Positions 4,966-63,954 of a stretch of DNA of 64,000 nt are shown here, one piece after another (position 1 is the stretch's first letter; each line of letters starts with the position of its first letter). Source of the stretch: Candidatus Shapirobacteria bacterium (GTDB lineage Bacteria; Patescibacteriota; Microgenomatia; 0-14-0-10-38-17); assembly GCA_018052565.1 (NCBI GenBank), contig JAGPNC010000001.1, positions 45,512 through 109,511 on the forward strand, written 5' to 3'. A program made the position numbers and the translations under genes. The notes beneath the pieces are model-generated. The model ran no database searches and was not told the origin of the DNA. It was given only the letters and a program-made list of their open reading frames with translations.

Positions 4966-5009
4966 TTTCTAAAAAAGAACAGATTATTTTTAACTAATTG
5001 ATTTTTAAT

Positions 5010-7968: not shown

Positions 7969-7969
7969 C

Positions 7970-14340: not shown

Positions 14341-14448
14341 AATAATTAATGCAAACTCCAATTAAGTAAGCAGAAATATACCGTTTATTTTTTTACTTAA
14401 CTGTTAAACGTCTATTATTTTACCACCAACCAACCTTGTTGGCAAAAA

Positions 14449-17214: not shown

Positions 17215-17412
17215 GCCCTGTACCAAAATGGTACGGGGCTGGCGGATTGAATTTTAACATTTAACATATAGTCCTGTCTACTGTGGGCAGGTTTGCGATT
17301 TGCGTTTTGAATCCATTTATAATTTTGACTTTTGGCTTTTTCCGCCAGAGGCGCAGGCCAGAGGCCTGTCAGCCTTGGGCAGAGACCCGCCTTGGGCGGG
17401 AACTTTTAAATT
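17215..17412. repeat. Cluster of GC-rich hairpin modules within A/T repeats (hypothetical-recR spacer)
   Basis: GGCCGGCTGGCCCTGTACC-AAAATG-GTACGGGGCTGGCGGATTGAATTTTA, then CCGCCAGAGGCG, GGCCAGAGGCC, CCCGCCTTGGGCGGG. The last module is identical to the one at 53745-53792. Confidence 0.6.
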
Positions 17413-20489: not shown

Positions 20490-20680
20490 GGGCAGGACAA
20501 AAAAATCAAAAGTTAAAAGTCAAAAGCTAAAAGTTCCCGCCCGAGACGGATCCGCCGTTTTGGGCGAATAGATTTAAGCTTTGAGATTTGACATTCGAGA
20601 TTTCAGCTCGGCTCGGCATTTGCGTTTTGAGGCCCCTGTGTGACATTCAAGATTTGAGCTCTTTTAATCACCGCAAAGCT
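20490..20680. repeat. Composite A-tract/GC-hairpin intergenic repeat (ybeY-yqeY spacer)
   Basis: AAAAATCAAAAGTTAAAAGTCAAAAGCTAAAAGTT-CCCGCCCGAGACGGATCCGCCGTTTTGGGCG ... repeated GAGATTTGACATTCGAGATTTCAGCTCGG / GACATTCAAGATTTGAGCTC units. Confidence 0.5.
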
Positions 20681-21383: not shown

Positions 21384-22511
21384 CTAGCGAAGGCGCCTGA
21401 TATCACTTATTGTCACCAAAATCATTAATAGCAACAAGATAAAAAAGCCAATCTGATTAGCCCACATCTCAATTTTTTGGCGTCGCTTTGGGCCCAAAAC
21501 TTTTTCCGCCAAAACAAAAAAAACCCGCCCCCCGTCTAGAGCCGGAAAGGGGAAAACATTCAAAATGGCCAAATTTACCGAAAGAACTCCTGCGAATTGA
21601 GCTAGCGGCCAAAAACCATTAGCGGCAATTTCCCCCGTTGCCTGATAAATGCCTACAGGGCCGGCAACGTCAAAAGCCATTTTTTCTCCCCTCAAGACTC
21701 CCTTAACTAAATTGACTAAACTTGCCACAATTTCCTCTCCCCAAAAGAAAGCTTCCGAAAAGCCATTATAAATTGCCTTCGGAATCATCTGATAAAAAGG
21801 ATAAAATTGAATTTTAGTATCCGAGATAACTATCCCTAAGGGGCCTTCACCCTCTGGAGGCGTTTCCCGAGGAACTACCACTGCCAAAAATCTGCCGTCT
21901 TGGCAATAAGAATAACTTTTTTTCTCCCCTCCCTGCCCTCCCAAGATTTCTTTTTGGCAAGGATTACCCTCTTGCCGACCAATCTCTAAATTAATAGGCC
22001 GTCCGAGCGATCCGTTGACGCGCTCTAAGAATTCTTCATTGCTCGTTATCTTTTCTCCCCCAAAAGACAAAATTAAATCTCCTTCAGCTAAACCCGCCTC
22101 CAAAGCAGGAGAACCAGGCAAAACTTTAACAATCCTTACTTCATTCGCTTTTTCCGGAATGCCCAAAAACGAATAAACTAAAGTAAAAATGACCACCGCC
22201 AAGATAAGATTCATTAACACCCCCGCCAGCAAAATTCCCAAACGCTTTTTCTTGTCTTTATGACTAAAGGCGCGTTCTTTATTCTTGTTTACACTAGTTT
22301 CTTCGCCATAAAGTCGGACAAAACCACCAAATGGCAAAAGATTAAGAGAATAAACAGTTTCTCCTCTCTTTATTCCTAAAAGGCGTGGAGGCAAACCAAA
22401 ACCAAATTCTTCTACCAAAACCCCTGCCTTTTTAGCTGCTAAAAAATGTCCCCCTTCATGGACTAAAACTAACACCGAAAGCAACAGAAAAAAAGTAATA
22501 ATTGTGGGCAC
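21384..22511 (-). CDS. rseP: RseP-like site-2 zinc metalloprotease (M50 with PDZ)
   Basis: HEGGHF zinc motif in the first TM. PDZ-like central region. C-terminal LDGG motif (ALDGGRVF). Confidence 0.8.
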   Translation of the reverse strand: MPTIITFFLLLSVLVLVHEGGHFLAAKKAGVLVEEFGFGLPPRLLGIKRGETVYSLNLLPFGGFVRLYGEETSVNKNKERAFSHKDKKKRLGILLAGVLMNLILAVVIFTLVYSFLGIPEKANEVRIVKVLPGSPALEAGLAEGDLILSFGGEKITSNEEFLERVNGSLGRPINLEIGRQEGNPCQKEILGGQGGEKKSYSYCQDGRFLAVVVPRETPPEGEGPLGIVISDTKIQFYPFYQMIPKAIYNGFSEAFFWGEEIVASLVNLVKGVLRGEKMAFDVAGPVGIYQATGEIAANGFWPLAQFAGVLSVNLAILNVFPFPALDGGRVFFVLAEKVLGPKRRQKIEMWANQIGFFILLLLMILVTISDIRRLR

Positions 22512-22516
22512 AAGGA

Positions 22517-22716
22517 AAATGCAAAACTTAAAAATTAAAAAGCAAAATGAAAGAGAAAAAATGCAAAATTAAAAGTCAGCAACTCGTAACATGTTAAAAA
22601 CAAAGATGGAACTACTCTCTAATTACAAGTTACCAGTTATCGGTTATAACTTGCTAGTCTTTTTACATTTTAAATTTTCATTTTTACTTTTGAGATTTGC
22701 ATTTCGATCTAACTAC
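22517..22716. repeat. Oligo-A/T-tract inverted repeat pair with a 90-bp spacer (upstream of rseP)
   Basis: AAAATGCAAAACTTAAAAATTAAAAAGCAAAATGAAAGAGAAAAAATGCAAAATTAAAAGTC ... TTTTTACATTTTAAATTTTCATTTTTACTTTTGAGATTTGCATTTCG. Confidence 0.55.
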
Positions 22717-31314: not shown

Positions 31315-31371
31315 AAAAAATAAGACTTGTTTTAAACTTTTTACTTTTGACTTTTGGCCTTTAATTATTAT

Positions 31372-32601
31372 CTATCCCCTTCCCCATTTGCCTCCACCTA
31401 AATTCTTAGCCATCCCTTTGATCTCTAATAGCCCCAAAACAGCATTAACTTTTTCTGCCGGCCAAGCCGCCTTTTTAATTATCTCATCAACCGTCAAATT
31501 TTCCCGCCAAAGAAAATCAATAATTATTTTTTCATCGGGAGATAAATTTTCGGAAGTAATTTTTTTCAAAGGCTTTTTCCCTTTTAAATTAAATTCCTCT
31601 AAAACATCCTCGGCACTGCTAACTAATTTTGCCCCATTCTTCAGAAGAAAAAGTGGGCCAGCGCAAAGAGGATAAGTAATTGGGCCAGGGACAGCAAACA
31701 CTTCCCGCCCAAAATCAGCTGCCAGAGAAGCAGTGATTAATGACCCCGACTGCCGCGCTCCTTCGGTCACCAAAACCCCCTCTGATAAACCGGCGATAAT
31801 TCGATTTCGGGAAGGAAAATTGCCCGGCAAGGGCGGCATTCCTGCCGGAAATTCGGAAATAATCAAGCCTTTTTGGGCAATTTCTTCGCTTAACTGATAA
31901 GCTTGGGGGGGATAAATCATATCAATACCACAGCCTAAAACGGCAATTGTTTTCCCTCCTCTTTTTAAAGCCGTCTGATGAGCCAAAGAATCAACTCCCC
32001 AAGCTAACCCCGAAACAATCACCAAACCTGCTTCCGCTAGCTCTTGAACCAATAAGCTTGTTACCTGCCGACCATAAGCAGTTATCCTCCTAGTTCCTAC
32101 CACCCCTAAGGAAGGCCAAGAAAAAAAATCTTTCTTCTCAAAAACTTCACTTTGTCGTCCTTTAAGATAAATTAAAAAAGGGGGCGAATCAATTTCTTTC
32201 AAAAGAGGAGGATAAAATTCATCTGCCAAGGTTAAGGGCCAAACTGGTTTATTTGCTTCTCTTAAATACTCGCCTTTCCTTTTAACCCAAGAGTAATCTT
32301 TCTCCTGCTCTTGATTATTAAAACCAAATTTTTCTCCCTGCCACAATTTGCCCAAGATTAATTTCTCAAAATATTCTTCGGGGGAAAAATGCCGACGAAA
32401 GTCTAAAAATCGTCTCGTTAGCTTCTCTCCTAAATTAAGCCGCCACCATTCTTCCTCTCTGGCTTTCCACGCCAAACGCGCTTGGCCAAAGTAACGCAAA
32501 ATAACCAAAAACTTTTGGGGTCCAATCCCCTGAAAAACATTAAAAGCGACCCAATAGGGACGATCCTCATTAATACTAATTTCTTTAAAATCAAGTGTCA
32601 T
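31372..32601 (-). CDS. dprA: DNA processing protein DprA/Smf with N-terminal extension
   Basis: Rossmann-like core LGVVGTRRITAYGRQVTSLLVQELAEAGLVIVSGLAWGVDSLAHQTAL. Classic dprA-topA adjacency. Confidence 0.8.
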   Translation of the reverse strand: MTLDFKEISINEDRPYWVAFNVFQGIGPQKFLVILRYFGQARLAWKAREEEWWRLNLGEKLTRRFLDFRRHFSPEEYFEKLILGKLWQGEKFGFNNQEQEKDYSWVKRKGEYLREANKPVWPLTLADEFYPPLLKEIDSPPFLIYLKGRQSEVFEKKDFFSWPSLGVVGTRRITAYGRQVTSLLVQELAEAGLVIVSGLAWGVDSLAHQTALKRGGKTIAVLGCGIDMIYPPQAYQLSEEIAQKGLIISEFPAGMPPLPGNFPSRNRIIAGLSEGVLVTEGARQSGSLITASLAADFGREVFAVPGPITYPLCAGPLFLLKNGAKLVSSAEDVLEEFNLKGKKPLKKITSENLSPDEKIIIDFLWRENLTVDEIIKKAAWPAEKVNAVLGLLEIKGMAKNLGGGKWGRG

Positions 32602-32792
32602 TGCTGTAATACTACCATCTTGGCCAAAATTGAAATCAAATAATCTTAATTAAAAAGTCAAAATTTTTAGTGCAAAATGCAAATAGCAAAGAGCAAAACC
32701 TAGATCAAAGTTCAAAAATGTTCTAAAGTTTTGGTCTTTGAGCTTGGTTTTGCATTTTGATTTTTTTATTGCACTTGATATTTAATACTTTT

Positions 32793-34406
32793 TTATTTTT
32801 CTCCAAAGTATTCTGCTAAAATCTCGCGAGCGATGGGAGCGGCTTGCTTTGAACCTTCTCCCCCTTCTTCTAAAAAGACAGTAACTGAGATTTCTGGTTT
32901 ATCCACTGGAGCAAAAACAGCAAACCAAGCGTGGGTGCTTTCTTCGCCCATCTCTGCTGTTCCTGTTTTGCAGGCAACTTTGTTTTCTTCTCCCCTTACT
33001 TTAAAATCAAAAAAAGGATAGGCCGTACCTCCTACTCCATCAGCCGATAAGGCGGGAGAGCAGGCTTCTCTCATTCCTTCAACAACCAAGTCAAGGTTCT
33101 CTTTTTTTAGAGAAAGAGGGGAGCATTTTTTTTCAACCGGTGGTTCTCCTTCTTTCTCCATGACCACGTGCGGCACACAAAGATTACCGCCGTTAGCAAA
33201 AACATTGGTCATCGTATTTACCTGAAGGGGGGTAAGCGCCAAATCCCCTTGGCCAATAGCAAAATGATAAGTGTTTCCTAAAAACCAATCTTCTCCTTTG
33301 GTTTCTTTCTTCCACTGCGGCGAGGGTACTAGACCGGCAACCTCCGCAGGTAAATCAATTCCCGTTTGTCGGTCAAGATTAAAATTTTTAGCCCAAAAGG
33401 AAAGCTTTTCTGCCCCTAATTTTTCTCCCACTCTATAGAAAAAAACATCATTTGACCGCTTTATGGCGGTGATAAGATCAATTGCTCCCTCTTTTTTGCC
33501 ATACTGTAAAAAATACCAATTAGCATAACGAAAATTACCAACTTCAATTACCCCCGTATCCTCAATTTTTGTCTGGCCATCAATTACTCCTTCTTCTAGG
33601 GCCGCCACCGCCGTTACCAATTTAAAAATAGATCCCGGCGGAAAACGCGCCGAAATGGCACGATTCAAGAAGGGATTACGGCTATCATCCAAAAGCGCCT
33701 CAATTCTTCCCTCATCTCGTTTATAAGTAAAAAGGTTAGGATCGAAAGAAGGGGAAGAAACTAAAGCCAACACCTCCCCATTTTGGGGATTAGTTACCAC
33801 TATTGCTCCCCTTTTTTCTCCTAAGAGAGAAGCTGCTTTTTTCTGAAGTTTTGAAGAAATAGCCAGAACGAGATCTTTGCCAGGCTTTGCTTCTTGCCGG
33901 CCAATTTCTCGCAAGTTGTTTCCCTTTATATCAGTTTCTACCAAGCGTTTTCCCGCTTCACCTCTTAACCAACATTCATACTCTTCCTCCACGCCTCCTC
34001 TCCCTCTCCAATCATCAGGGGAATAAGAACCACAGTCCTTATTCCCCTTCAACTCTTCTTTGCTTACCGGCCCTAAATACCCCAAAAGATGAGCAAAAGA
34101 GGGCCCGAGAGGATAGTAGCGCCGGTAAACTAATCTTGTTTCCTGGTTATTTATCTTACTCTTTAGGTACTCTTCCCGACTAATTACCATTTCTCTCCGA
34201 AAATATTGAGGGGAATCAATTGCCAAAGGTTCGCGATCGCGATCAAAAATTATCCCGCGCGGAGGGGGAATTTCTTCCATCACTAAGCGATTTTCTTCGG
34301 CCATAGTCTGGTATTTCCCCCTCAAAACAATAGTGAGATAAAAAAGGCGGCCTATTAAAAGAAAGAGCAAACCAAAAATTAAAAAGCGTAAGACCTTTTT
34401 AGCCAT
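32793..34406 (-). CDS. mrdA: Penicillin-binding protein 2 (class B transpeptidase)
   Basis: N-terminal TM. SxxK (SIFKLVT). KTGT motif (ACKTGTAEM). Downstream of mreBCD. Confidence 0.8.
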   Translation of the reverse strand: MAKKVLRFLIFGLLFLLIGRLFYLTIVLRGKYQTMAEENRLVMEEIPPPRGIIFDRDREPLAIDSPQYFRREMVISREEYLKSKINNQETRLVYRRYYPLGPSFAHLLGYLGPVSKEELKGNKDCGSYSPDDWRGRGGVEEEYECWLRGEAGKRLVETDIKGNNLREIGRQEAKPGKDLVLAISSKLQKKAASLLGEKRGAIVVTNPQNGEVLALVSSPSFDPNLFTYKRDEGRIEALLDDSRNPFLNRAISARFPPGSIFKLVTAVAALEEGVIDGQTKIEDTGVIEVGNFRYANWYFLQYGKKEGAIDLITAIKRSNDVFFYRVGEKLGAEKLSFWAKNFNLDRQTGIDLPAEVAGLVPSPQWKKETKGEDWFLGNTYHFAIGQGDLALTPLQVNTMTNVFANGGNLCVPHVVMEKEGEPPVEKKCSPLSLKKENLDLVVEGMREACSPALSADGVGGTAYPFFDFKVRGEENKVACKTGTAEMGEESTHAWFAVFAPVDKPEISVTVFLEEGGEGSKQAAPIAREILAEYFGEK

Positions 34407-35494: not shown

Positions 35495-35640
35495 TGAATT
35501 ATTCTAATTATCCTAATTAATCTAATTTCCAAAAGAAATCCCAAATGCTAAAATCCCAAATCCAAAATGGTTTCTTAACCTTCTTTTTTTTAGGGTTTTG
35601 GTTTTGGGTATTTTTTAGGTCAATTAAAATAATTTGAAAC
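35495..35640. repeat. Palindromic MITE-like intergenic repeat, copy C (between mreB and mreC)
   Basis: GAATTATTCTAATTATCCTAATTAATCTAATTTCC...GGTTTTGGGTATTTTTTAGGTCAATTAAAATAATTTG. Confidence 0.65.
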
Positions 35641-35756: not shown

Positions 35757-36794
35757 CTATAGTTCTATTTTTACCCGCTCTCTTAACTTAGGGTTATCTA
35801 GTAATTTCGCTCCCCCCAAAACTACCGCCGCTTGGGGATCGGGGGCAACAAAAACTGGCATTTTAATTTCTTGAGAAAAAAAGTTGGCTATACGAGAAAG
35901 CCCAGCCACTCCCCCGCACAAGGTAACTCCTCGCTCCAAAAAATCATCCATTAATTCCGGAGGCGATTCTTCAATCACTTCGCTTATTTGGCCGGCAATC
36001 TGATTAAGTACCGGCGCAATCGCCTCTCGCACCTCTTCCGAGCTAACCTTAACCGAAAGAGGCAAGCCAGTTTCTAAGCTTCGCCCGCGCACTACCATCA
36101 GCCTCTCTTTCTCTAAGGGTAAGGCGCTCCCTATGTTAATTTTAATCTCCTCCGCTGTTGTCTCGCCAATTAAAAGAGAGTATTTTAGTCTCAAGAAATT
36201 GACTAACGCCTTATCCATTCTATAGCCCGCTGTCCTTAAAGAGCGGTTTAAAACAATCCCCCCTAAAGAAATAACCGCAATTTCCGTTGTTCCTCCGCCA
36301 ATATCACAAATCAAAACCCCCCCGGGTTGCTCTACCGGCAAATCCGCCCCTATTGCTGCCGCCAATGGTTCTTCTATCAAAAAGCAGTTTCCTGCTCCTG
36401 CCTCAAGAGTGGCCTCCAAAACCGCCCGCCTTTCTACTTCGGTGGAGCCTGAGGGAGTTCCCACTACCACCAAAGGCTTAAAAAAAGCGTGCCAAATTTT
36501 TCCCTCCGGAGTTAATTGTTCTAAATAGTAGCTAATCATTGCCCGAGCGGCGTCAAAATCAGCGATCACCCCTTCATGTAAAGGATAAAATGCTTCGATT
36601 GTTTGGGGAGTCTTACCAATCATTTTTTTTGCCTCTTCCCCAACAGCCACAATCGCACCATCCCTTTTCTGTCTCGCTACTACCGAAGGCTGGCGAAAAA
36701 CAATCCCCTTCCCTTTTTGATAAACTAAAGTATTCGCCGTCCCTAAATCAATCGCTAATTTTTGTGAAAAACGGTCTTTTAAAAAGCTGAGCAT
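35757..36794 (-). CDS. mreB: Rod shape-determining actin homologue MreB
   Basis: LAIDLGTANTLVY phosphate-1 motif. DIGGGTTE phosphate-2 motif. Confidence 0.9.
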   Translation of the reverse strand: MLSFLKDRFSQKLAIDLGTANTLVYQKGKGIVFRQPSVVARQKRDGAIVAVGEEAKKMIGKTPQTIEAFYPLHEGVIADFDAARAMISYYLEQLTPEGKIWHAFFKPLVVVGTPSGSTEVERRAVLEATLEAGAGNCFLIEEPLAAAIGADLPVEQPGGVLICDIGGGTTEIAVISLGGIVLNRSLRTAGYRMDKALVNFLRLKYSLLIGETTAEEIKINIGSALPLEKERLMVVRGRSLETGLPLSVKVSSEEVREAIAPVLNQIAGQISEVIEESPPELMDDFLERGVTLCGGVAGLSRIANFFSQEIKMPVFVAPDPQAAVVLGGAKLLDNPKLRERVKIEL

Positions 36795-36915
36795 TATATA
36801 AAGTATAGCATCGGAAAGAAGAAGTAAGAAATGGTATAATTAACTATAAACAATCGCCAAGTGCTTTTTCGACAAAAATTATGATTTTTCTAATACTTAA
36901 TTTTGTCTACTAGCA

Positions 36916-37008
36916 GAAAATTCAAAAGTTAAAATTCAAAATTAAAACAGAAACTTTTAACTTTTTACTTGGAATTTTACATTTTCATTTTTGAATTTTG
37001 AATTTTTC
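36916..37008. repeat. Oligo-A/T-tract palindrome upstream of tRNA-Ala
   Basis: AAAATTCAAAAGTTAAAATTCAAAATTAAAAC ... TTTTACATTTTCATTTTTGAATTTTGAATTTTTC. Confidence 0.65.
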
Positions 37009-37052
37009 ATCATACTTAATACCTAATACTTAATACTTGATACTTTTTTTCT

Positions 37053-37317: not shown

Positions 37318-38376
37318 ATGAACGATTATAGCGACTACAAAGAAAGAAAATATTTATCTTCTACAGAAGCAGCAAGATATTTAGATATCTCTGTAGGAAT
37401 GTTACATAATTTGGTCAGGGTAAATAAGATTAAATGTTTTATCGCCGGAAGTGGGCAAAAACGCTTTAATCTAAAGAATTTAAAAAAATATGAAACGAGT
37501 AAACCAAATAAAAAAGTAAAAGAGAAAAAAAAAGAAATATTAATAGAAAATATAGTCAACATTAATAATACTACTCAGAAAATCTTTATTAAAAATGCGA
37601 TGGATATGAGTGAACTAAAAGATGACTCTGTCCATTTAATGATTACTTCGCCTCCTTATTTTGACGCAAAAATGTACACCAAAAAACCTATTAAAAATGA
37701 TTTAGGCAATATACATAATCTTGATGAATGGTTTAAAAAAATTGGCATTGTTTGGAAAGAAGTTTTTAGAGTTTTACAACCGGGGAGAAAAGCATTTATA
37801 AATATTATGAATTTGCCTATAAGAGATAATGGCGGTTTTAAATCTCTAAATTTAGTCGGTAGGACAATAGATACAATGGAAAAAATAGGTTTTATTTTCA
37901 AACGAGATATTGTGTGGCACAAAACAAACGGGGTGAGAGCAAATTTCGGGACCTATCCATACCCTGGCGGTATTCTAATAAATAATATGCATGAGTTTGT
38001 TCTGGAATTTAATAAACCAAACAAGAAAGGATTTAATAAATATGGACATTTGACAAAAGAGCAAAAAGAAGCATCCAGGCTCGATAAAGAATTTTGGCTT
38101 TCTATAAAAAACACTGATGTCTGGTTAATGAAGCCGCGAAACAGTGGAGATAGCCGAACCCATGTTGCTCCGTTTCCTTACGAGTTACCATATAGAATCA
38201 TCAAGGCGTTTACTTTTATCGGAGAAGTGGTCTTAGATCCGTTTCTTGGCAGTGGCACCTCGCTAGAAGTAGCCGCAGATTTAAAAAGAAATGGCATAGG
38301 ATATGAAATTGTCCCTGAAATTGCTGAAACTGCAATTAAAAATTTGAATCAACATCAGAATAAACTATTTACTTAA
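37318..38376 (+). CDS. DNA methyltransferase (beta-class N4-C/N6-A, SPPY motif) with N-terminal excisionase-type HTH
   Basis: Motif IV TSPPYFDAK is followed much later by motif I DPFLGSGTSLEVA, the beta-class order. N-terminal residues 14-60 resemble an HTH_17/MerR-like DNA-binding domain. About 30% GC, so AT-rich. Confidence 0.8.
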   Translation: MNDYSDYKERKYLSSTEAARYLDISVGMLHNLVRVNKIKCFIAGSGQKRFNLKNLKKYETSKPNKKVKEKKKEILIENIVNINNTTQKIFIKNAMDMSELKDDSVHLMITSPPYFDAKMYTKKPIKNDLGNIHNLDEWFKKIGIVWKEVFRVLQPGRKAFINIMNLPIRDNGGFKSLNLVGRTIDTMEKIGFIFKRDIVWHKTNGVRANFGTYPYPGGILINNMHEFVLEFNKPNKKGFNKYGHLTKEQKEASRLDKEFWLSIKNTDVWLMKPRNSGDSRTHVAPFPYELPYRIIKAFTFIGEVVLDPFLGSGTSLEVAADLKRNGIGYEIVPEIAETAIKNLNQHQNKLFT

Positions 38377-38390
38377 TTAATAATAAAAAT

Positions 38391-39515
38391 ATGGTAATCG
38401 ATGCAAAAACAATATATGCCCAATCGAGTGATATTAAATCTAGAACATATCTAGAGTATCGCAAAGATATGAAACAAAAAGCTATTGCTGAGTTAGAAGT
38501 TTTACCGTGGCTTAAGAAAAAAATTCGCCAAAAGGATAAAAAAGCCGTTGTTGAAAAATTCGGAGGCGATAAGTTTATTTGGTTTTTAAGAAAAGGGGGA
38601 ATTACGAGAGAACCAGATTTTGTGGCAAAATATTCAAATAAGGAAACTAAATACGTTGAATTTCAATACGCAAAAAAAGAATTAAGCGCTTATGATTTTA
38701 AGATTTCTAAAATTGCTCCAAAAAACAGAACACTAAACAAGAGGGCCCCTAAAGACGATACAGAAATTTTATATGTCGTTAAGCCAACCTATGAGTTCGC
38801 AATTTTAAGTCCTGACTGGATAATTAAGAATTCAAAACAAGCTATTGCTTCTGCTTGGGGTAATGCTCCGGTATTCAGGGTACCAAAAGAAAAATTTAAA
38901 AAAGTTTTACAGAAAGATAAAGAATTGAAAGCTGTTTGTGACTTTATAGATAAAAAAATTTCGATCTTGGATTTCCAACATAAAACCATTGAAATGGAAG
39001 AGAACAAGCTTTCTTATCTTTTGCAACAAGTTATAGATGAAGAGAAAATCCTAAAAATAATTCCAAAAACCATAGATGGATTTTTTAAAGTTTGCTTTAT
39101 GCTCGACCACATCGAAAAGATTCCAACTAATGCAAATTTGTGGCTAGTATATATTTTATCCTTTTTAGACCAAAGTTTAAATTCTTATGAACTCTTTCGG
39201 TTAATTTATAGCTTAGATTTTCTTTATCAAAAAGTTGAATTAAAAACAAATGAACTTAGCAGATTAGTAAGGGGATTAAAAGAAATTAATAAGCAAGTTG
39301 AACGATTTTCAAATCCCGATGGTTCTTTTCGGTCAGATAAAACCATCGCTCCTCTGGAAGATACAAGATATTCACTTTTCATAATAAATATCCTTGAAGA
39401 TTTGACCCAAGATGTTCTGTATTACTATGGGAACAATATCAACCTAAGACCTATCACTAGGATATACCAAACCGTTCCGCAAATAAATAAAACTTTTCAA
39501 TTCGTCATGCAATAA
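38391..39515 (+). CDS. Uncharacterised protein, candidate restriction endonuclease partner of the upstream methyltransferase
   Basis: Starts 14 bp after the MTase stop on the same strand, with the same AT-rich composition. Possible PD-x9-ETK (PD-(D/E)xK-like) segment REPDFVAKYSNKETKYVEF. No other recognisable domain. Confidence 0.35.
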   Translation: MVIDAKTIYAQSSDIKSRTYLEYRKDMKQKAIAELEVLPWLKKKIRQKDKKAVVEKFGGDKFIWFLRKGGITREPDFVAKYSNKETKYVEFQYAKKELSAYDFKISKIAPKNRTLNKRAPKDDTEILYVVKPTYEFAILSPDWIIKNSKQAIASAWGNAPVFRVPKEKFKKVLQKDKELKAVCDFIDKKISILDFQHKTIEMEENKLSYLLQQVIDEEKILKIIPKTIDGFFKVCFMLDHIEKIPTNANLWLVYILSFLDQSLNSYELFRLIYSLDFLYQKVELKTNELSRLVRGLKEINKQVERFSNPDGSFRSDKTIAPLEDTRYSLFIINILEDLTQDVLYYYGNNINLRPITRIYQTVPQINKTFQFVMQ

Positions 39516-51115: not shown

Positions 51116-52147
51116 TTATTTTAGAGAATGCTGATATAAATCAATATTCTCAAGGGCCACTCCTATCCCCTTAATAACACAAAAAAGGGGATCAGGGGCA
51201 ACAAAGCAAGGTACTCCTGTCTCTTGGGTAATGAAACGATCAAGGTTAGCAAGAAGACTGGTACCCCCGCTGATAACCATTCCCCGATCAATAATATCCC
51301 GAGAAATTTCCGGTGGCGTTTCCTCAAACACCTCCTTAATCCCCTTAACGACCTGATGCAACACAGGCATTATCGCCTCCTTAACTTCACTGCTAGTAAG
51401 ATTAATCAATCGGGGCAAGGCCGTTAAGGAATCTCTCCCCTTAATCTCCATTGTTTTCTCCCCTTTTCCTTCTATCGCGCTACCGATCGTAATTTTAATT
51501 TCCTCTGCCGTTTGCTCGCCCACAATCAGGCCGTAATTTTTCCGCAAGTAAGAAGCAATTGCCTCGTCCAATTTACTCCCCCCCACCCGCAATGACTGAT
51601 GAGCCACAACACCTCCCAAGGCGATAACGGCGATTTCTGCTGCTCCGCCGCCAATATCAACAATCATATTTCCCGAGGCTTCGGCAATAGGCATTTGGCT
51701 GCCGATTGCTGCCGCCAATGGCTCATCAATAAGGTAAACTTTGCGAGCGCCAGCAGAAAGTGCCGCTCCAATCACCGCTCTCCTTTCTACCTGAGTGGCT
51801 CCTGCAGGGATACACACCATTATCTCCGGCTTAAAAAAGTGAGTTCCCAAAGATTTCTTGATAAAATAACGAATAAGTGCTTCGGTAACTCTATAGTTAG
51901 CCACCACCCCTTCTTTCAAGGGTCTTAAAATAGTGATATTTTGAGGGGTTTTGCCTAACATTTTTTTTGCCTCGTGACCAATAGCAATCACCCGATTATC
52001 CTTATAGGTGATGGCTACTACCGTCGGCTCATTTAAAATGATTCCCTTTCCTTTGAGATAAACCAAAGAATTAGCTGTTCCTAAGTCAATCCCCAAAGCG
52101 GGAAAAGAAAATTTTCTGGTAAAAAATTCCGCTACCCCCTTTTTCAT
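51116..52147 (-). CDS. Second MreB/Mbl actin-like paralogue
   Basis: ALGIDLGTANSLVYLKGKGIILNEPTVVAI. DIGGGAAEIAV. Confidence 0.85.
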   Translation of the reverse strand: MKKGVAEFFTRKFSFPALGIDLGTANSLVYLKGKGIILNEPTVVAITYKDNRVIAIGHEAKKMLGKTPQNITILRPLKEGVVANYRVTEALIRYFIKKSLGTHFFKPEIMVCIPAGATQVERRAVIGAALSAGARKVYLIDEPLAAAIGSQMPIAEASGNMIVDIGGGAAEIAVIALGGVVAHQSLRVGGSKLDEAIASYLRKNYGLIVGEQTAEEIKITIGSAIEGKGEKTMEIKGRDSLTALPRLINLTSSEVKEAIMPVLHQVVKGIKEVFEETPPEISRDIIDRGMVISGGTSLLANLDRFITQETGVPCFVAPDPLFCVIKGIGVALENIDLYQHSLK

Positions 52148-52238
52148 ATCAGTTTATATTCTAGTCGTTCTCATTATATAACAATAACCTCACTTCATCC
52201 TGCTTACTTTCCAAGAATCTTTAAATGTATTATAATAA

Positions 52239-52371
52239 GTGGCTGGGACATAATCCCAAGTATTGTTGCAAATTTAACCCAACGCCATCCTGAACCTAAT
52301 ACAGAATCTGTCCTGTTGTCAAAGCGGCGATCCCGACTTTCGTTAGGATGATGAATCATGTCCTATCCGCT
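52239..52371. mobile_element. Small TIR element (MITE-like), copy 1, with 9-bp target-site duplication
   Basis: Left TIR AGTGGCTGGGACATAAT and degenerate right TIR ATCATGTCCTATCCGCT. Flanked by direct repeats TATAATAAG at 52232-52240 and 52372-52380. Confidence 0.6.
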
Positions 52372-52391
52372 ATAATAAGCATAATTTAAAA

Positions 52392-53657
52392 ATGACCCGT
52401 TCTCAAAAAAGAGTCGCCATTAGTCTTTTAACTTTTTTCTTTGTTGTCAGCGGCACAATTTTAATCAGTCTTTTGGCCCGTGGCTATCGTCCTGACTTCC
52501 AAGAAAAAGGGCTTAAGCCTACCGGCTTGCTCGTCGTTAATTCTCTCCCCAAAGGAGCCCAAGTTTTTATTAACGGCCAATTAACCACCGCCACTAATCA
52601 AACTATTAACTTACCGCCCGGAGAATATAGGGTAACTATCAAAAAACCAGGCTATTCTTCTTGGGAAAAAAACATTATTTTGGAAAAGGAAGTGGTCACC
52701 AATATCGACGCTTATCTTTTCCCCCTTGCGCCCGACCTTAAAGCTCTCACCTTTTCTCCCACCTTAAATCCTCTTCTTTCACCAGACGGAACGAAGCTAA
52801 TTTACTTTTCTCCCGGAGGGGAAGAAGATCCCCAAAACCAAAACGCTACTCAAACGGCCCCTCTTCTCCCTCAAGAAAAAGGGGGTGTTTGGCTTATTGA
52901 CTTGACAGAAAAACCTCTTGGCCGCTCTCTCCAGCCGCGGGTTCTAGTCAAAACGCCTAAAGACTTACCCATTGAGCAAATTGAGACTGAATGGTCACCA
53001 GACTCAAGGCAAATTCTTCTTACTATCAACTCAAAAGACGAAAAGAGTAAGCAATATTTTCTTCTCGAAATTAATCAAGTTTACGACTTCACCCTCTCTC
53101 CTCTTATCAGCACTCCAACTGCCCAAGTGATAACTACTCTTGATTTGTGGGAAAAACAAAAAAATCAACAAAATAAAGCTCTTCTAAAAAGATTGCCCGA
53201 AGAAATACAAAAATTTCTTGAAGAAAAAGTTGCCAGCTTTTCCTTCTCTCCCGACGAGAGCAAAGTGCTTTATCAAGCAGGAAGTGATTTCCAAATTAAA
53301 GAAAAACTCTTATCCCAAGAAATTATTGGCGCTTCAACCCAAAAAGAAGAAAGGGCAGTCAAAAAAAATCAATGGTATGTTTATGATCTCAAAGAAGATA
53401 AAAACTTTCTTGTCCTTGATAATAAAGAAGCTACCAAAATTAGCTGGTTTCCCACTTCTCTCCATCTTCTTTTAATAAAAGAGGGCAAAGTAGAAATCGA
53501 AGATTACGATGGCAAGATGCGGACTACCGTTTATGCCGGCCCTTTTGATAATGGATTTGTTTTCCCCCTCCCTTCCGCTAAAGGGTTGCTGATCCTTACT
53601 TCCTTAAATAACAATACCGATTCTGCCCCCAACCTTTATTCTATTAATTTTTATTAA
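52392..53657 (+). CDS. PEGA domain membrane-anchored protein with beta-propeller-like C-terminal repeats
   Basis: N-terminal TM. PEGA motif LPKGAQVFINGQ...LPPGEYRVTIKKPGY. Repeated SPDG/SPDS segments. Confidence 0.55.
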   Translation: MTRSQKRVAISLLTFFFVVSGTILISLLARGYRPDFQEKGLKPTGLLVVNSLPKGAQVFINGQLTTATNQTINLPPGEYRVTIKKPGYSSWEKNIILEKEVVTNIDAYLFPLAPDLKALTFSPTLNPLLSPDGTKLIYFSPGGEEDPQNQNATQTAPLLPQEKGGVWLIDLTEKPLGRSLQPRVLVKTPKDLPIEQIETEWSPDSRQILLTINSKDEKSKQYFLLEINQVYDFTLSPLISTPTAQVITTLDLWEKQKNQQNKALLKRLPEEIQKFLEEKVASFSFSPDESKVLYQAGSDFQIKEKLLSQEIIGASTQKEERAVKKNQWYVYDLKEDKNFLVLDNKEATKISWFPTSLHLLLIKEGKVEIEDYDGKMRTTVYAGPFDNGFVFPLPSAKGLLILTSLNNNTDSAPNLYSINFY

Positions 53658-53744: not shown

Positions 53745-53792
53745 TTTTTAACTTTTTCCGCCAGAGGCGGACCCGCCTTGGGCGGGAAATTT
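53745..53792. repeat. GC-rich hairpin module (CCGCCAGAGGCGG + CCCGCCTTGGGCGGG) flanked by A/T tracts
   Basis: Same module occurs at 17340-17410. Related cores at 61391-61405 and 20538-20560. Confidence 0.6.
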
Positions 53793-53804
53793 TAACTTTT
53801 GACT

Positions 53805-53875
53805 TTTTTAAAGTGCCTCTACCAGGAATTGAACCTGGATCAACCGCTTAGGAGGCGATTGCTCTTTCCGTTGAG
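53805..53875 (-). tRNA. tRNA-Arg (CCT), atypical (6-nt T-loop)
   Basis: Reverse complement folds as acceptor GCCTCTA/TAGAGGC, D-arm, and anticodon stem ATCGC/GCGGT with loop CTCCTAA. The T-arm CCAGG-TTCATT-CCTGG has only 6 loop nt, so it may be a pseudogene or a 1-nt indel. Confidence 0.55.
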
Positions 53876-54018: not shown

Positions 54019-54343
54019 CTGAAAGAGAAAAAAAGCTCTTTGAGTCCGAGGCACTCCATGCACCACCGCTCGCACGAAGCGTCGCAAAGCCCCTTTTATA
54101 TTCTACCGAGAGCTGCCAGATATAAAAGAAGGAAGAAAAACACAAAAATTTTAAAGATCTTTTTATAATAATTGATGGCATACCCGTTGCAACCAGTTAG
54201 GAATCTCTTCCAACTAACGAGTGCGCCATCAAAAAAAGAGATTCGTAAAAACTGGTTGCTAAATAAATATACCAAAGTCTGAAATAACTATTCAAGCCTT
54301 ATTCGCAACATGCCTTTATCCAATTCAAAATTTTAGATATAAT

Positions 54344-55477
54344 GTGAACAATATGATTTATTCAAAACCATCGCTAACAGAAATTAGGACACACCAACTA
54401 AAAGCGCAATCAGTTGACCTTCATACTTACACAAGGGAGGCAAGCCTAAGAAGAATTCCCGATACTCGAATCATAAAAGAAGGAGATAATGAATTCATTG
54501 AGTTTTCATTTAATGGTTTTAAAGTTATAACTGACACTTCCGAAGAAAGTGTCGAGTTTTCCGAAGAAGGAGACCCCCAAAATAAATATTTTCGTATTCG
54601 AAAATTTTTAGTGAATTTTCAAGGAAAAGATGTTGATCTTCTTGATAATGAAGTTGCTAAACTCTGTGATCACTTTATGTCTTTCCGAGTAAGTAGAATT
54701 GGCTCACATTTTAATAGACAGGTAGTGGTTGTTAACAATGAAGGTCAAGAAATTAAAAGACTTAAGAGCAATATCGTAATTTATGTTCCAACAAACGAAG
54801 AGAGGACAGACTACGATGCAGAAGAAATGCTATATCACTGGGTACATGAGTTCGGTCACGCTCTCGATCTGATTGACGTAGTAAGAAGATTCCGCAGGGT
54901 AAGTACTAAAGGAGAAAAGTATGAACGAGTAAGCAACGAAGAATTAAATGATGTCAAAGCAGAAAGAGACGCCCATGCAATTGGATTAAAAATCCTTAGG
55001 TGGATTCGCAGATTATATGGACCACAACCAAGTATTTCCGAAGAACGATATATCAATAACGTGGTCGAACCGGCATTACACTCCCGCCAGTTAGTTAGAA
55101 TGGACTTTCGTTCTGCTTATTCTAATCAAGACCGAGCATTATTCAGAGAAGAAGAAATAGAAATAAGAAAGATGGGTATAGCCGAAGAGGTAGATAGAGA
55201 AAGATTCCAAATAAAATTTAGGCGAGATAAAAATATTTCTTTACTATCAGAAAGACTTGGAGAAAGAGCACAAGAAATGTATGATTCTTTAGTCCAGGCA
55301 TGGGTAGATGAAAATATCGATAAGATGGTAAAATTAAATCAAATTTTTGCTAAAAGCGGCTTAGAAGAACATAAAACAAGAGAAGAATTGATTATGGACT
55401 TAGAGCTTGATTACCACTCGGCAATTTTAAGAAAACACGGAATACCATGGGAACAATTTTCAAGTTTATTAAAATAG
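54344..55477 (+). CDS. Uncharacterised HEXXH zinc-metallopeptidase-like protein (zincin motif HEFGH)
   Basis: YHWVHEFGHALD is the only recognisable motif. AT-rich (about 33% GC) with atypical codon usage. Lies immediately after tRNA-Pro. Confidence 0.5.
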   Translation: MNNMIYSKPSLTEIRTHQLKAQSVDLHTYTREASLRRIPDTRIIKEGDNEFIEFSFNGFKVITDTSEESVEFSEEGDPQNKYFRIRKFLVNFQGKDVDLLDNEVAKLCDHFMSFRVSRIGSHFNRQVVVVNNEGQEIKRLKSNIVIYVPTNEERTDYDAEEMLYHWVHEFGHALDLIDVVRRFRRVSTKGEKYERVSNEELNDVKAERDAHAIGLKILRWIRRLYGPQPSISEERYINNVVEPALHSRQLVRMDFRSAYSNQDRALFREEEIEIRKMGIAEEVDRERFQIKFRRDKNISLLSERLGERAQEMYDSLVQAWVDENIDKMVKLNQIFAKSGLEEHKTREELIMDLELDYHSAILRKHGIPWEQFSSLLK

Positions 55478-55500
55478 TATTTGAATATTGATAATATTGA

Positions 55501-55519
55501 GCGATTGTTCTGCAATCGC
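55501..55519 (+). terminator. Stem-loop GCGATTG-TTCT-GCAATCGC 24 nt after the stop of the HEXXH gene
   Basis: Perfect 7-bp stem. No downstream T-tract, so it is hairpin-only. Confidence 0.3.
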
Positions 55520-55749
55520 AAAATCGCGCGCGCAAAAAATAACGGAGGCGCGGCGGCGGCGCCCGACGCGCCGGAGTTGCGAGCGGAGCGAAGTGAGCCA
55601 ACAACCTTGAAATTTGGTTCTAAATTTTTCGTAAATCTCAAACCGCAACAAATTACCCCCCTTACTTTTCACGTGATGAAACACCTTGCTGGCTTTCGTG
55701 AGAGCCACTTCATATTTCCTCTAGAAGACAGCTTAGAAGGGCAAACAGG

Positions 55750-56298
55750 TTAATAGGAAAAAATCTCTTCCTCTTTAAACCAAAGTTGTTTTTCTAATTT
55801 TGCCTCCTCCTTGCTTCCCGAAGCATGAACTAAATTATGAACAGATCTTTTTTCTCGATTTGACAGGGAAGGCGAATCTAAACCAAAATCCCCCCTGATT
55901 GTCCCCGGTGGCGCCGTTAAGGGATAAGTAGGACCAATAATTTTACGGACGACCTCTATCGCCGCTGGCCCCTCCCAAACCATTGCTAAAATAGGTCCTT
56001 CGGTTAGATACTCTACATTCCATTTTTGAACTAATTCTCCTATCTCACGGTTAGTCAATTTGGAAAATTCCTCTCCCTTGTCTAGGCCTTCCTGCTGATA
56101 AAATTCCTTCACTTTTCGGCCAACATTCTCAAACCACTCATCATTATAACCATAATGTTTTGTCGCCAGCTCGGGTTTCACTACCACCAATTTTGCCGCC
56201 ACCATTTTCAATCCTGCTTTCTCAAAACGAGAAATAATTTCGCCAACTAAGCCGCGCTTCACCCCATCAGGCTTAATTAAAACTAAAGTTTGTTCCAT
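55750..56298 (-). CDS. ndk: Nucleoside diphosphate kinase (with C-terminal extension)
   Basis: LVLIKPDGVKRGLVGEIISRFEKAGLKMVA. NLVHASGS active-site His region. Confidence 0.85.
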   Translation of the reverse strand: MEQTLVLIKPDGVKRGLVGEIISRFEKAGLKMVAAKLVVVKPELATKHYGYNDEWFENVGRKVKEFYQQEGLDKGEEFSKLTNREIGELVQKWNVEYLTEGPILAMVWEGPAAIEVVRKIIGPTYPLTAPPGTIRGDFGLDSPSLSNREKRSVHNLVHASGSKEEAKLEKQLWFKEEEIFSY

Positions 56299-57657: not shown

Positions 57658-57842
57658 CAAATTATTCTGATTAACCTAATTATTCTGAATAAATCCCAAA
57701 TGCCAATCCGCCAGCTGAGCCCGTACTATTTCGCTACGGGGCTGGCGGATCAGATAATTTTCATTAGTTAATTAATTTTGGAGTTGTGGCTTGGATTTTT
57801 TTAGGTCAATTAGAATAATTTAGAATAATTAGAACAATTTTT
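57658..57842. repeat. Palindromic MITE-like intergenic repeat, copy D, with a central GC hairpin
   Basis: AAATTATTCTGATTAACCTAATTATTCTGAATAAATCCCAAATGCC, then hairpin ATCCGCCAGCTGAGCCCGTAC...GTACGGGGCTGGCGGAT, then GGATTTTTTTAGGTCAATTAGAATAATTTAGAATAATTAGAAC. Confidence 0.7.
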
Positions 57843-57987
57843 TAAATTTTCTCGCGTTTCAAATCTCCGCACCATACGATTGAAACTATTTAAATAGTTA
57901 AATCCGGGGGCGAGAAGATAAATTTCTTGGGGAAAGATAGCATTACCCCTACTCTAACAGATTATTTCCCAATCGTAGGGAAAAAAT

Positions 57988-61047: not shown

Positions 61048-61318
61048 AACGAAAATATTTTAAATTACTAATCTGTTAATTAAATTGTTATCGGTAACTC
61101 AATCGTCATCCTGATGAAAATTAGGACCTGTCTTTGAGTGCTTCTGTCATTCTAACAGAAGTTAGAATCTATTTTCCTATTGACCTTAAACAGGTTCCGA
61201 ATCCTGCCCCGCACTGCACCATGCGTTACGGGGCCCCGCCGGCAGGTGTAGGTGAACTCAAAATGACGAAATACGAATCATTTATCTATGACTCTTGCAG
61301 TTTTTATACTTAATACCT

Positions 61319-61441
61319 AGTGGCTGGGACATAATTCTTTTTTTGTCATTCTGAAGGAGCGTGAGCGACTGAAGAATCTCATACAAGAGGATTCTCCCCC
61401 CGCCCAAGGCGGGCCCAGAATGACGTTTATGTTCCAGCCTC
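61319..61441. mobile_element. Small TIR element (MITE-like), copy 2, with about 10-bp target-site duplication
   Basis: TIRs AGTGGCTGGGACATAAT and TTTATGTTCCAGCCTC. Flanked by direct repeats (C)TTAATACCTA. Interior carries the inverted repeat GTCATTCTG...CAGAATGAC and a CCCGCCCAAGGCGGG hairpin. Confidence 0.6.
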
Positions 61442-61484
61442 TTAATACCTAATACATAATACTAAATACATCTCTATTCTACTA

Positions 61485-62405
61485 CTACTCTTCTACCCAC
61501 CAGCGCCGGCCGTCGCTGACCACCACCACATCACCATCTTGATCGGTCCGCTTTATCAACAGACCTTCTTTTTTAAGCTGCTCTCTTAGAATCTGATGAG
61601 GATGCCCCCAGGGATTTTTCCCTACGGAAATAATCGCTAGAAGAGGTTGCGCCATTCCTAAAAACTCGTCCGTAAAAGCATATTTTGAACCATGATGAGC
61701 TACTTTTAAAACTTCAGCCGGCGAAAAAGAAGTTGTGGCCAAAATTTCCGGCTGAATCCGGCTGTCAGCATCGCCGGTCAAAAGCAAATCAAATTTACCA
61801 AAAGAAATCCTAGCCACTAAAGAAAAATCATTTAAGGAAGCGTCTGGGGCTAAGACTTGATCTACTAAGATATCCCCTGATCGATAAAGATCGGTTTTCA
61901 CAACACTGATGGCTGATAGTTTTTCAAAGAACCAATCTTTTTGGGGCCAAAGAAATAAAAAATTTATCCCATCGAGGGAAATTTTATCCCCCTGCCAAGG
62001 AATTATTAATTTTGTCTTGCCCCTACTAACTAAATCCGATAGTTGACTAAATAATTTGTTTTCTCTTACTAAAGGGCTTTTAACAAAATAGCTTGCTCGG
62101 TATCTTTCTATAACCGAAGCAAGGCCACCAAAATGATCTTTTTCCGGATGAGTTAAAATTACCATTTCCAAGCGACGGTCCCAAAAGGGCATGTATTTGC
62201 CCAGACAAGTTAAAACTGCTTCATTCTCTCCACCATCTACGAGAATCTGGCTTTCCCCTCGCGTTAATAAAATCGCATCACCCTGTCCTACATTACAAAA
62301 AATTACCCGTAAATTATCATCCGGCTGCTGCCAAAGAAAAAGAAAAACTACTCCAAAAATAATTAGCGCTAAGGTAGGCAATAATTTCCGTGGTGTTAGT
62401 TCCAT
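61485..62405 (-). CDS. comEC: ComEC/Rec2 C-terminal metallo-beta-lactamase domain protein, separate ORF with its own signal anchor
   Basis: MBL motifs VIFCNVGQGDAILL, HPEKDHFGG, VAHHGSKYA. Start reset to the ATG at 62405 (MELTPRK... then a TM). The 39 codons upstream in the track ORF run through a repeat element. Confidence 0.7.
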   Translation of the reverse strand: MELTPRKLLPTLALIIFGVVFLFLWQQPDDNLRVIFCNVGQGDAILLTRGESQILVDGGENEAVLTCLGKYMPFWDRRLEMVILTHPEKDHFGGLASVIERYRASYFVKSPLVRENKLFSQLSDLVSRGKTKLIIPWQGDKISLDGINFLFLWPQKDWFFEKLSAISVVKTDLYRSGDILVDQVLAPDASLNDFSLVARISFGKFDLLLTGDADSRIQPEILATTSFSPAEVLKVAHHGSKYAFTDEFLGMAQPLLAIISVGKNPWGHPHQILREQLKKEGLLIKRTDQDGDVVVVSDGRRWWVEE

Positions 62406-62420
62406 ATTCTTTATATTTTT

Positions 62421-62714
62421 AGTGACTGGGGCATAATTCGTTATCATAACCCCGCCGGTAGCGGGGTAAATTATTCTAATTATTCTAATTAACCGAATTT
62501 CTAAATAAATCCCAAATACCAAACCCCAACCCGCCCGGGGCGGATTATTTTTAGTTGATTCTAATTTTGGGAATTGGGATTTGGGTGTTCTTTAGGTCAA
62601 TTAGAATAATTAGAGCAATTAGAATAATTTTTAACCTTTTTTGACCCTAAATTTAATTTAGGATAACGTTGAATTAAATTTACAATGGCATTGGGAATTA
62701 TGTTCCAGCCACTT
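62421..62714. mobile_element. Composite TIR element, copy 3, carrying a nested palindromic MITE-like repeat, with about 10-bp TSD
   Basis: TIRs AGTGACTGGGGCATAAT and ATTATGTTCCAGCCACT. Flanked by direct repeats TTATATTTTT. Interior carries the hairpin CCCCGCCGGTAGCGGGG and the 170-bp palindromic repeat at 62468-62636. Confidence 0.6.
62468..62636. repeat. Palindromic MITE-like intergenic repeat, copy E (nested in TIR element copy 3, between the comEC halves)
   Basis: AAATTATTCTAATTATTCTAATTAACCGAATTTCTAAATAAATCCCAAATACC...CCCGCCCGGGGCGG...GGGTGTTCTTTAGGTCAATTAGAATAATTAGAGCAATTAGAATAATTTTTAACC. Confidence 0.7.
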
Positions 62715-62721
62715 TATATTT

Positions 62722-63954
62722 TTAATACCAAATTTTTGGCCTTTTAAAAATCACCGTTGCCCAAAAACCAAAATAACCTATCAATAGCCACCAGGGCAGG
62801 GAAAAAGAAAAGAAAGGCAAAATATGACCCCAAAAGCTAACTCCCTCCACAAAAATCTTACTTGGCAAAAAAACAAGCCAAGAAAAAGGTTGAGCCAAAA
62901 ATGGCAAAAAGGGGCCAATAATTATCAAAATCATCCCCAAAAGCATAATCGGCGAAATAAGCCAAAGCAGAGTGGCGTTGGCTAAAAAAGAAAACGGCGA
63001 AAACTGGCCAAAAGAAATTAGCAAAAGCGGGGTGGTAAAAATCTGCGCCGCTAAAGTGGTCAATAAATCATCTTTAAAAGAACCAAAAGTCGGCAACCAA
63101 GAGAAAAAATTTCCCAAACGGTTTTTAAAAAAAATAATGCCGGCGCTGGAAGCAAAAGAAAGTTGAAAGCCAAGGTCAAAGATCATCCCCGGATCAAATA
63201 GGGCCAGCAAAACTCCTGCCAAAGCCAAGCCGCGCCAGCTTTCCTTCTGGCGGCCGAAAAAAGTGCCACCAATAGAAAAGCTAGCCATTATCGCCGCCCG
63301 AAGTAAAGGAGGTTCTGCTCCACACAGGAAAACATAAAACCAAATTGCTGGCAGGGTTAAAAGAAGGGCCCGGCGACGATTAAAAAATCGGTTCAGAAGA
63401 GGCAAAACAAATGAACTTACCAAAACGACATTTGTCCCCGAGGCAACCACCACATGAAGCATCCCCGTTTTAACTAAATTTTGATAAAAGTCTGAGGGGA
63501 GGGTGCTTTTAACCCCCAAAAGCACCCCTGACACTAGGGAGGCTGTTGGCTCCGGCAAAAGGCTTTCAAAAAAAAGCACCACTTTTTGCCGAAGGGAAAA
63601 AATAGTTCGGCCAAAGCCCCTCGCCGCTGAAGGGTTCAGTAAATTGACCGAGGGATAGTTCAACCAAAGTTCTTTCTTGCCATCTTTTGTCAGCGATTGC
63701 TCTACTTTGCCGACAATCTCTACCCGATCCCCATAATGAAGAACTGGCTCTCTTGCTGTTTTAACCTTAAGCCCTTCAAGACTGAATGTCTGAGTCTGGC
63801 TAAAGGATTGCGGTTCTTTTTTTAAAACACCCTCAATTTTTACTTCCTGCCCTATTAATTCTTCTCTTGGGAAAGAAGTTGTTTTCTGCCAGCGGTAAAA
63901 CCAAAGACTGCCTAACGCGAAAAGAAAAAAAAGATAAGAGAAAAACCTTTTCAC
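62722..63954 (-). CDS. comEC: ComEC/Rec2 N-terminal part (OB/DUF4131 plus polytopic competence channel domain)
   Basis: N-terminal TM plus OB-like region. Competence-domain signature GVLLGVKSTLPSDFYQNLVKTGMLHVVVASGTNV. Many TM segments. No MBL domain in this ORF. Confidence 0.7.
   Translation of the reverse strand: MKRFFSYLFFLFALGSLWFYRWQKTTSFPREELIGQEVKIEGVLKKEPQSFSQTQTFSLEGLKVKTAREPVLHYGDRVEIVGKVEQSLTKDGKKELWLNYPSVNLLNPSAARGFGRTIFSLRQKVVLFFESLLPEPTASLVSGVLLGVKSTLPSDFYQNLVKTGMLHVVVASGTNVVLVSSFVLPLLNRFFNRRRALLLTLPAIWFYVFLCGAEPPLLRAAIMASFSIGGTFFGRQKESWRGLALAGVLLALFDPGMIFDLGFQLSFASSAGIIFFKNRLGNFFSWLPTFGSFKDDLLTTLAAQIFTTPLLLISFGQFSPFSFLANATLLWLISPIMLLGMILIIIGPFLPFLAQPFSWLVFLPSKIFVEGVSFWGHILPFFSFSLPWWLLIGYFGFWATVIFKRPKIWY

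Follow-up and report, generated by a model that had tools for sequence, protein, structure and literature searches.

Three short non-coding elements of 132, 122 and 293 bp in a 64-kb stretch of DNA from Candidatus Shapirobacteria (CPR, Microgenomates), the whole of which is called the window here, very probably form a genuine family of non-autonomous MITEs that are moved by a DDE transposase acting in trans. Such a reading had been proposed in an earlier note made from the sequence alone, and it is supported by the terminal repeats, by perfect flanking duplications, by an empty site for copy 1 in relatives, by the lack of coding capacity and by matching ISs in related CPR genomes. No ORF of ≥60 aa was found inside the three elements, and none of them has a match in Rfam. 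The assignment of the window to Candidatus Shapirobacteria follows from homologues of the proteins encoded next to the elements. The positions of the elements and of associated features are given in Table 1.

The elements are bounded by imperfect 16-bp terminal inverted repeats with the consensus GTGGCTGGGACATAAT, and the two ends of one copy agree at 12-13 of 16 positions in each of the three copies. With up to three mismatches, GTGGCTGGGACATAAT matches the window five times (52239+, 61320+, 61426-, 62422+ and 62697-), compared with 0.28 matches expected by chance, and five matches were obtained in none of 100 shuffles. The matches pair convergently (52239, 61320/61426 and 62422/62697), while the sixth end, at the right of copy 1, has four mismatches to GTGGCTGGGACATAAT. 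Perfect direct repeats in AT-rich spacers flank all three copies and measure 8-9, 10-11 and 10-13 bp, depending on the choice of boundary: the duplication at copy 2 is 10 bp long, which becomes 11 bp on inclusion of the final C of the repeat, and that at copy 3 ranges from 10 bp to 13 bp (CTTTATATTTTTA) with the placement of the element end. Simulation at AT-rich positions of the window, with 2 nt of slack per boundary, gave a flanking repeat of ≥9 bp with P = 0.0018 per site; for three such repeats together, the probability is approximately 1e-8. Furthermore, the contig L117 from an independent NCBI assembly, which spans copy 2 and most of copy 3, reproduces positions 61284-62691 at 99.86% identity; therefore, the elements in this region are not assembly artefacts. 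The earlier note had described three copies within 12 kb, each with inverted ends of about 16 bp and flanking duplications of 9-11 bp. This description holds, with the duplication lengths ambiguous by 1-3 nt; the positions given there are off by about 1 nt.

Table 1. Positions in the window of the MITE copies, their terminal repeats and duplications, and other repeats
Feature	Position	Strand	Remarks
MITE copy 1, 132 bp	52239..52370	+	A-end left, B-end right
Copy 1 left terminal inverted repeat, GTGGCTGGGACATAAT	52239..52254	+	pattern search
Copy 1 right terminal inverted repeat, GCGGATAGGACATGAT	52355..52370	-	12/16 to left repeat
Copy 1 target-site duplication, left, TATAATAAG	52231..52239	.	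G common to duplication and repeat
Copy 1 target-site duplication, right, TATAATAAG	52371..52379	.	perfect copy
MITE copy 2, 122 bp	61320..61441	+	B type at both ends (repeat + GTCATTCTG)
Copy 2 target-site duplication, left, TTAATACCTA	61310..61319	.	perfect copy
Copy 2 target-site duplication, right, TTAATACCTA	61442..61451	.	perfect copy
Probable relic of a further, decayed element of this kind	61085..61290	.	TCGTCATCCTGA ... AAAATGACGAA subterminal motifs; boundaries approximate
MITE copy 3, 293 bp	62421..62713	-	A-end at right (62670-62712, minus strand)
Copy 3 target-site duplication, left, TTATATTTTT	62411..62420	.	perfect copy
Copy 3 target-site duplication, right, TTATATTTTT	62714..62723	.	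perfect copy
Nested second-family palindrome in copy 3	62467..62632	.	ends AAATTATTCTAATTA / TAATTAGAATAATTT
7-nt periodic tracts	4-48, 1797-1941, 7871-7977, 12501-12544, 14230-14345, 20498-20535, 22508-22704, 31324-31373, 32636-32794, 36909-37019, 53790-53810		also in relative L149, 9780-9890

Copy 1 is located between the divergently oriented mreB gene (51116-52147, minus strand) and a gene encoding a PEGA-domain protein (52392-53657, plus strand). The comparison of empty and filled sites, proposed in the earlier note, spoke for insertion at this locus: in L149, L150 and L151, three collinear relatives that are about 77-83% identical in DNA, the copy-1 site reads AATGTATTATAATAAG once, with a single TATAATAAG and no element. 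The distant Shapirobacteria L131 and L121 have mreB-PEGA spacers of 102 bp and 84 bp, respectively, versus 244 bp in the window, and the excess over 102 bp corresponds to the element plus one copy of the duplication (132 + 9, rounded to 142). In more distant relatives, copies 1 and 3 are both absent. The evidence from relatives for the insertion of copies 2 and 3 is indirect and comes from the lengths of spacers and from ORFs that overlap. The left duplication of copy 1 overlaps a TATAAT box resembling a -10 element. A promoter-like site for the PEGA gene, TTTCCA-17-TATAAT with 10 of 12 matches, was noticed at 52208-52236, with the element now lying between this site and the gene, and the duplicated TATAAT (52371-52376) is situated 15 nt upstream of the PEGA-gene ATG. 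The window also contains a second mreB paralogue (35757-36794).

Copy 2, which folds into a long hairpin, lies between argS (start 61047) and the comEC MBL-domain ORF (stop 61485). The relic adjoining it has terminal repeats that agree at only about 7 of 16 positions, and the argS-MBL spacer that harbors both measures 437 bp in the window; in L118 and L149, this spacer is 23 bp long. Inside copy 2 (61399-61413) lies a small GC hairpin, CCGCCCAAGGCGGG(C), which also occurs at 17386-17400, 20535-20556 and 53766-53786, and heptamer tracts of the TAATACC type occur around copy 2, at 12633-12667 and at 37012-37046.

Copy 3 occupies a spacer of about 14-15 nt between two ORFs of comEC, the one for the Competence domain (stop 62722-62724) and the one for the MBL domain (start 62405). 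The division of comEC into two ORFs (Competence-domain, 62722-63954; MBL-domain, 61485-62405) is kept across Shapirobacteria; in the distant ones, the two ORFs overlap by 4-13 nt, leaving neither a spacer nor an element. Within the clade, a member of the family is present in this spacer in all four lineages (the window, L120, L149 and L118). Compared with L120, ~7 additional nt (ATATTTT) border the window's element on either side. The duplication must therefore have arisen from another spacer sequence, which speaks for an insertion of independent origin; a single orthologous insertion shared by copy 3 and the L120 and L149 elements fits these extra nucleotides less well and was set aside. Between L118 and L149, the element is in opposite orientation within flanks that are 97% identical; this is no simple inversion, since identity falls to 88% in the A-ends and the interiors are unrelated. 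The elements that L118, L120 and L149 carry in this spacer count against the MITE reading in one respect: their flanks show only T-runs of 4-7 nt, below the expected 8-11 bp. Judging from these sequences, at least two independent insertions may have occupied the spacer, as a recurrent landing site or a retained one, and its occupancy is most simply read as a hot spot with turnover. That the element has been co-opted there for regulation that depends on its orientation, as a terminator or promoter cassette uncoupling the expression of the ComEC channel domain from that of the MBL nuclease domain, seems improbable to us; if true, it would separate channel and nuclease expression in DNA-scavenging CPR bacteria.

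The nested element that the earlier note had seen in copy 3 belongs to a second palindromic family, with copies elsewhere in the window at 2664-2822, 35496-35640 and 57659-57846 and a half copy at 4982-5067. These four other places lack GTGGCTGG ends, and a search of the nested palindrome against Rfam returned only sub-threshold matches to plant MIR hairpins. Members of this second family are ~150-190 bp long, lie in spacers and carry a central GC hairpin. The region 2645-2900 and copy 3 have flanks in common, with GTG..GCATAATT on the left and TTTTTARCCTTTTTTGAYCYTAAA on the right.

The MITEs themselves take the form of long imperfect palindromes, in which the 16-bp terminal repeats are followed by an inner stem (GYCATYCTGA / TCAGRATGAC) and then by GC-rich hairpins. 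Copies 1 and 3 and the copies of the relatives have a polar layout in common, with an A end consisting of the repeat, 15 nt and AAATTTAAYYCA...GYCATCCTGAAC (repeat + 15 nt + AAATTTAA...CATCCTGAAC in copy 1) and a B end consisting of the repeat followed by TCGTCATCCTGAC...GTCAGGAT. The members in L118, L120 and L149 have one end of ~65 nt and another of ~35 nt in common with copies 1 and 3, with unrelated interiors. Common ends that enclose unrelated interiors are, as far as can be judged from sequence, a MITE-specific architecture. The interiors differ, as the earlier note had stated, but copies 1 and 3 have ~60 nt in common at one end. All three copies and the relic of the 64-kb window lie within 52-63 kb, and the end modules are common to four lineages. 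No two window copies have a common interior, and the common ends are only ~75% alike, which does not point to a recent amplification in this genome.

A metagenome scan with a 43-nt A-end pattern gave L120 as its sole match, and three scans of viral contigs gave none. Scanning a genome collection with the 16-mer returned at least 116 loci, nearly all of which are chance matches (we estimate that ~500 would be expected in 596 Gb); among the matches listed, the only informative locus was L045, from a CPR3 bacterium. The matches in Firmicutes are terminator-like hairpins or belong to an unrelated repeat of ~300-375 bp, with no transposase adjoining, and may reflect either a related transposase or coincidence. 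GTGGCTGGGACATAAT occurs at the ends of this latter repeat in Gracilibacillus (L002, 6263-6570; L049, 19-34; L110, 4067-4441) and in terminator-like hairpins of staphylococci (L004, L061 and L086) and Enterococcus (L044); Lentilactobacillus was also among the Firmicutes matches.

The window itself contains no transposase gene, as the earlier note had stated. A Pfam scan of 47 of its ORFs detected no transposase, including none of the Y1 type, and the only recombinase was a XerC/D-like tyrosine recombinase (10838-11788); a tblastn search with 74 transposases of the partner family described below gave nothing below E = 0.05 in the window and no transposase coding fragment in any copy. We considered a 1.7-kb island (54020-55750) as a transposase source and rejected it, as its 377-aa ORF has no Pfam match and a metalloprotease-like HEFGH motif, and no repeats of the family surround it. 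The island lies next to a tRNA-Pro gene, is absent from L118 and L149, shows a deviant GC skew and encodes, besides the 377-aa ORF (54344-55477; HEFGH conforms to HExxH), an ORF of 90 aa.

A full-length IS with the same ends, which the earlier note had expected elsewhere in the genome, does exist in related CPR genomes (L045, L132 and L137-148), with duplications of 8-11 bp. This candidate autonomous partner is ~1.17-1.2 kb long and encodes one DDE transposase of ~333 aa with DUF772 and DDE_Tnp_1 domains and a Y(2)R(3)E(6)K motif. In L045, a partial ORF at the contig start ends 90 bp before an exact ATTATGTCCCAGCCAC and encodes a DDE_Tnp_1 transposase with ADKGYD and YYRRGDVERLYGQLK motifs. 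Its IS end matches the element ends at 16 of 16 positions, although CPR3 is a different CPR lineage from that of the window, which counts against it. The homologues of the L045 protein are ~333 aa long, most of them encoded on contigs of 1.1-1.7 kb, and include a 'transposase [Candidatus Shapirobacteria bacterium]' and one Microgenomates protein. Full-length ISs were fetched via protein homology, independently of any DNA pattern; their ends agree with the element ends at about 10-14 of 16 positions, and their duplications measure 8, 9, 9 and 11 bp. The IS of L132 (Candidatus Shapirobacteria) is 1196 bp long, with the ends ATGACTGGGACATAAA / GTGAGTGAGACATAAT and an 11-bp duplication, AAGAGGTTATT, but its ends match those of the elements at only 9-13 of 16 positions. 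The L137-146 group has the ends GTGACTGGGTCGTAAA / ATGAATGAGTCATAAT and duplications of 8, 9 and 9 bp, and the ends in L147 and L148 are GTGACTGGGACATAAATCCCAA / GTGACTGGGTCATAATTC (L147 also given as GTGACTGGGACATAAATCCCAA / GTGACTGGGTCATAATTCAG, with L148 similar). Over all these ISs (L045, L132 and L137-148), 10-16 of 16 positions of the IS ends are identical in comparisons with copy 2, copy 3 and the left end of copy 1, and 8-12 of 16 in comparisons with the degenerate right end of copy 1. We do not equate the A end with the left and the B end with the right end of the IS, because similarity between MITE and IS ends past ~22 nt is not significant.

In the transposase alignment, D123, D219, E277, Y270, R273 and K284 are invariant. 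The protein scores 54-72 bits with PF01609 (DDE_Tnp_1; cut-off 23 bits), and DUF772 is also above its cut-off, but it falls below every curated NCBIfam IS-family cut-off, with 78-131 bits for IS1182 (cut-off 270) and ≤75 bits for the IS5 models (cut-off 140). Among annotated relatives on plasmids, the nearest are 'ISNCY family' transposases, which are ~30% identical and whose ends are unrelated, and no solved structure was found to be related by sequence. Only 13 clusters among 1.84 billion representatives are related to the partner transposase at E ≤ 1e-30, indicating a rare lineage.

In the mechanism we propose, this rare IS5/IS1182-like DDE transposase (~333 aa, DUF772 + DDE_Tnp_1), supplied in trans, would recognise the ~16-bp ends GTGRCTGGNNCATRAT and then excise or copy the element, which would insert into AT-rich intergenic DNA via a staggered cut of ~8-11 nt, and repair of this cut would give rise to the flanking duplication. 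Mobilisation in trans and a cut-and-paste chemistry are what we infer from these features, and the matching ends suggest that this IS lineage, not another, may have moved the copies. The partner IS would be present now, or would formerly have been present, in this same genome, against which counts that no IS of the lineage was found in the window or in ~150 kb of close relatives.

Each copy might instead be the remnant of a full-length IS that was internally deleted in place, so that the short form never transposed; terminal repeats and duplications would look alike in this case, no interior is common to any two window copies, and a decayed relic adjoins copy 2. However, copies 1 and 3 and the members in L118, L120 and L149 have subterminal A/B modules in common that are absent from the sequenced ISs, which points to descent from a common short progenitor, and none of the copies retains a fragment of a transposase gene; we therefore consider in-place deletion unlikely. 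Still less probable, in our view, is that these are not selfish transposons but structured cis-regulatory or RNA elements selected by the host, such as a REP-like hairpin, a terminator or an attenuator, or that the comEC element is an invertible switch. Copies 2 and 3 and the L120 element do fold far beyond shuffled sequence (z = -4.9, -7.9 and -8.9, respectively), the comEC-N/MBL spacer is filled throughout the clade, and the element there is inverted between L118 and L149 despite nearly identical flanks. Against such a role stand the perfect duplications, the site of copy 1 that is empty in relatives, the identity of the ends with those of a transposase-encoding IS, the unconserved interiors, the lack of an Rfam match and the folding of copy 1, which is no better than chance (z = -1.7); the unrelated interiors behind the similar A-ends of L118 and L149 also speak against a switch.

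Low-complexity 7-nt periodic repeats abound in the AT-rich spacers of the window, and the target of copy 2 lies in a TAATACC-type tract, so the repeats might be thought a coincidence. This explanation is refuted by the shuffles, by the flanking-repeat simulation and by the matches to IS ends; independent recurrence in other genomes and on ISs also speaks against it, and its remaining probability is negligible. A non-autonomous MITE family mobilised in trans thus accounts best for the three elements.

Periodic tracts with a 7-nt unit (TTTTGAC, TTTTAAC, TTTTGCA and similar), often as inverted pairs, are found in many intergenic spacers (Table 1). One such block in the mreB-PEGA spacer of L149 is absent from the window; hence, these tracts, too, vary between relatives. 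The stretch with the lowest GC content in the window (0.33), at 37318-39515, comprises a gene for an N6/N4 DNA methylase followed by a 374-aa ORF without Pfam matches, and the two are probably a restriction-modification pair.

The MITE and its IS are of a common type, although the host is unusual, and no new mechanism is involved. With its DDE_Tnp_1 domain, D-D-E residues and Y(2)R(3)E(6)K signature, the partner belongs with the IS4/IS5 superfamily. The IS5 group makes 4-bp duplications and the IS903 group 9-bp duplications (ISfinder). The partner resembles IS5 and IS1182 in its single ~333-aa ORF, its ~1.2-kb length, its ~16-bp terminal repeats and the combination of DDE_Tnp_1 with an N-terminal DUF772, but it differs from them in scoring far below the NCBIfam cut-offs and in its duplications of 8-11 bp.

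In the Bacillus cereus group, MIC231 elements are cassettes with the ends of IS231 (IS4 family) that are moved in trans by its DDE transposase, with duplications of ~10-12 bp in AT-rich targets. The elements presented here are likewise short, non-autonomous and bounded by IS ends, but the transposase family and the ends are different, and, whereas MICs often carry passenger genes, these elements are non-coding and only 122-293 bp long. Correia elements (NEMIS, Neisseria), RUP and ERIC are hairpin elements of 100-300 bp with terminal repeats that lie between genes or inside operons, often over promoters. To our knowledge, insertion of Correia elements duplicates TA, and no transposase is known for them, unlike the elements described here, which have a 9-11 bp duplication and a candidate transposase lineage. 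The presence of terminal repeats and duplications also distinguishes them from palindrome-associated elements derived from IS200/IS605 and from REP/RAYT elements, which have neither and whose subterminal hairpin is recognised by a Y1 transposase.

CPR genomes are small and compact. We know of no report of CPR bacteria (Patescibacteria) as hosts of active transposons, and a full-text literature search found no paper describing MITEs in them. The finding is of use for annotation and adds a little to the catalogues of ISs and MITEs. In practical terms, such elements break metagenome assemblies, with L117 ending inside copy 3 and the partner ISs assembling as isolated contigs of ~1.2 kb, and they yield spurious small ORF calls, such as the 64-aa gene that the public annotation of L118 places inside a MITE (2613-2807), an ORF made by the element. 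For the biology of these bacteria, the MITE family, with its rare and unclassified partner, means that transposition has recently shaped their genomes, including the promoter region of mreB and the PEGA gene and the junction between the two halves of comEC.
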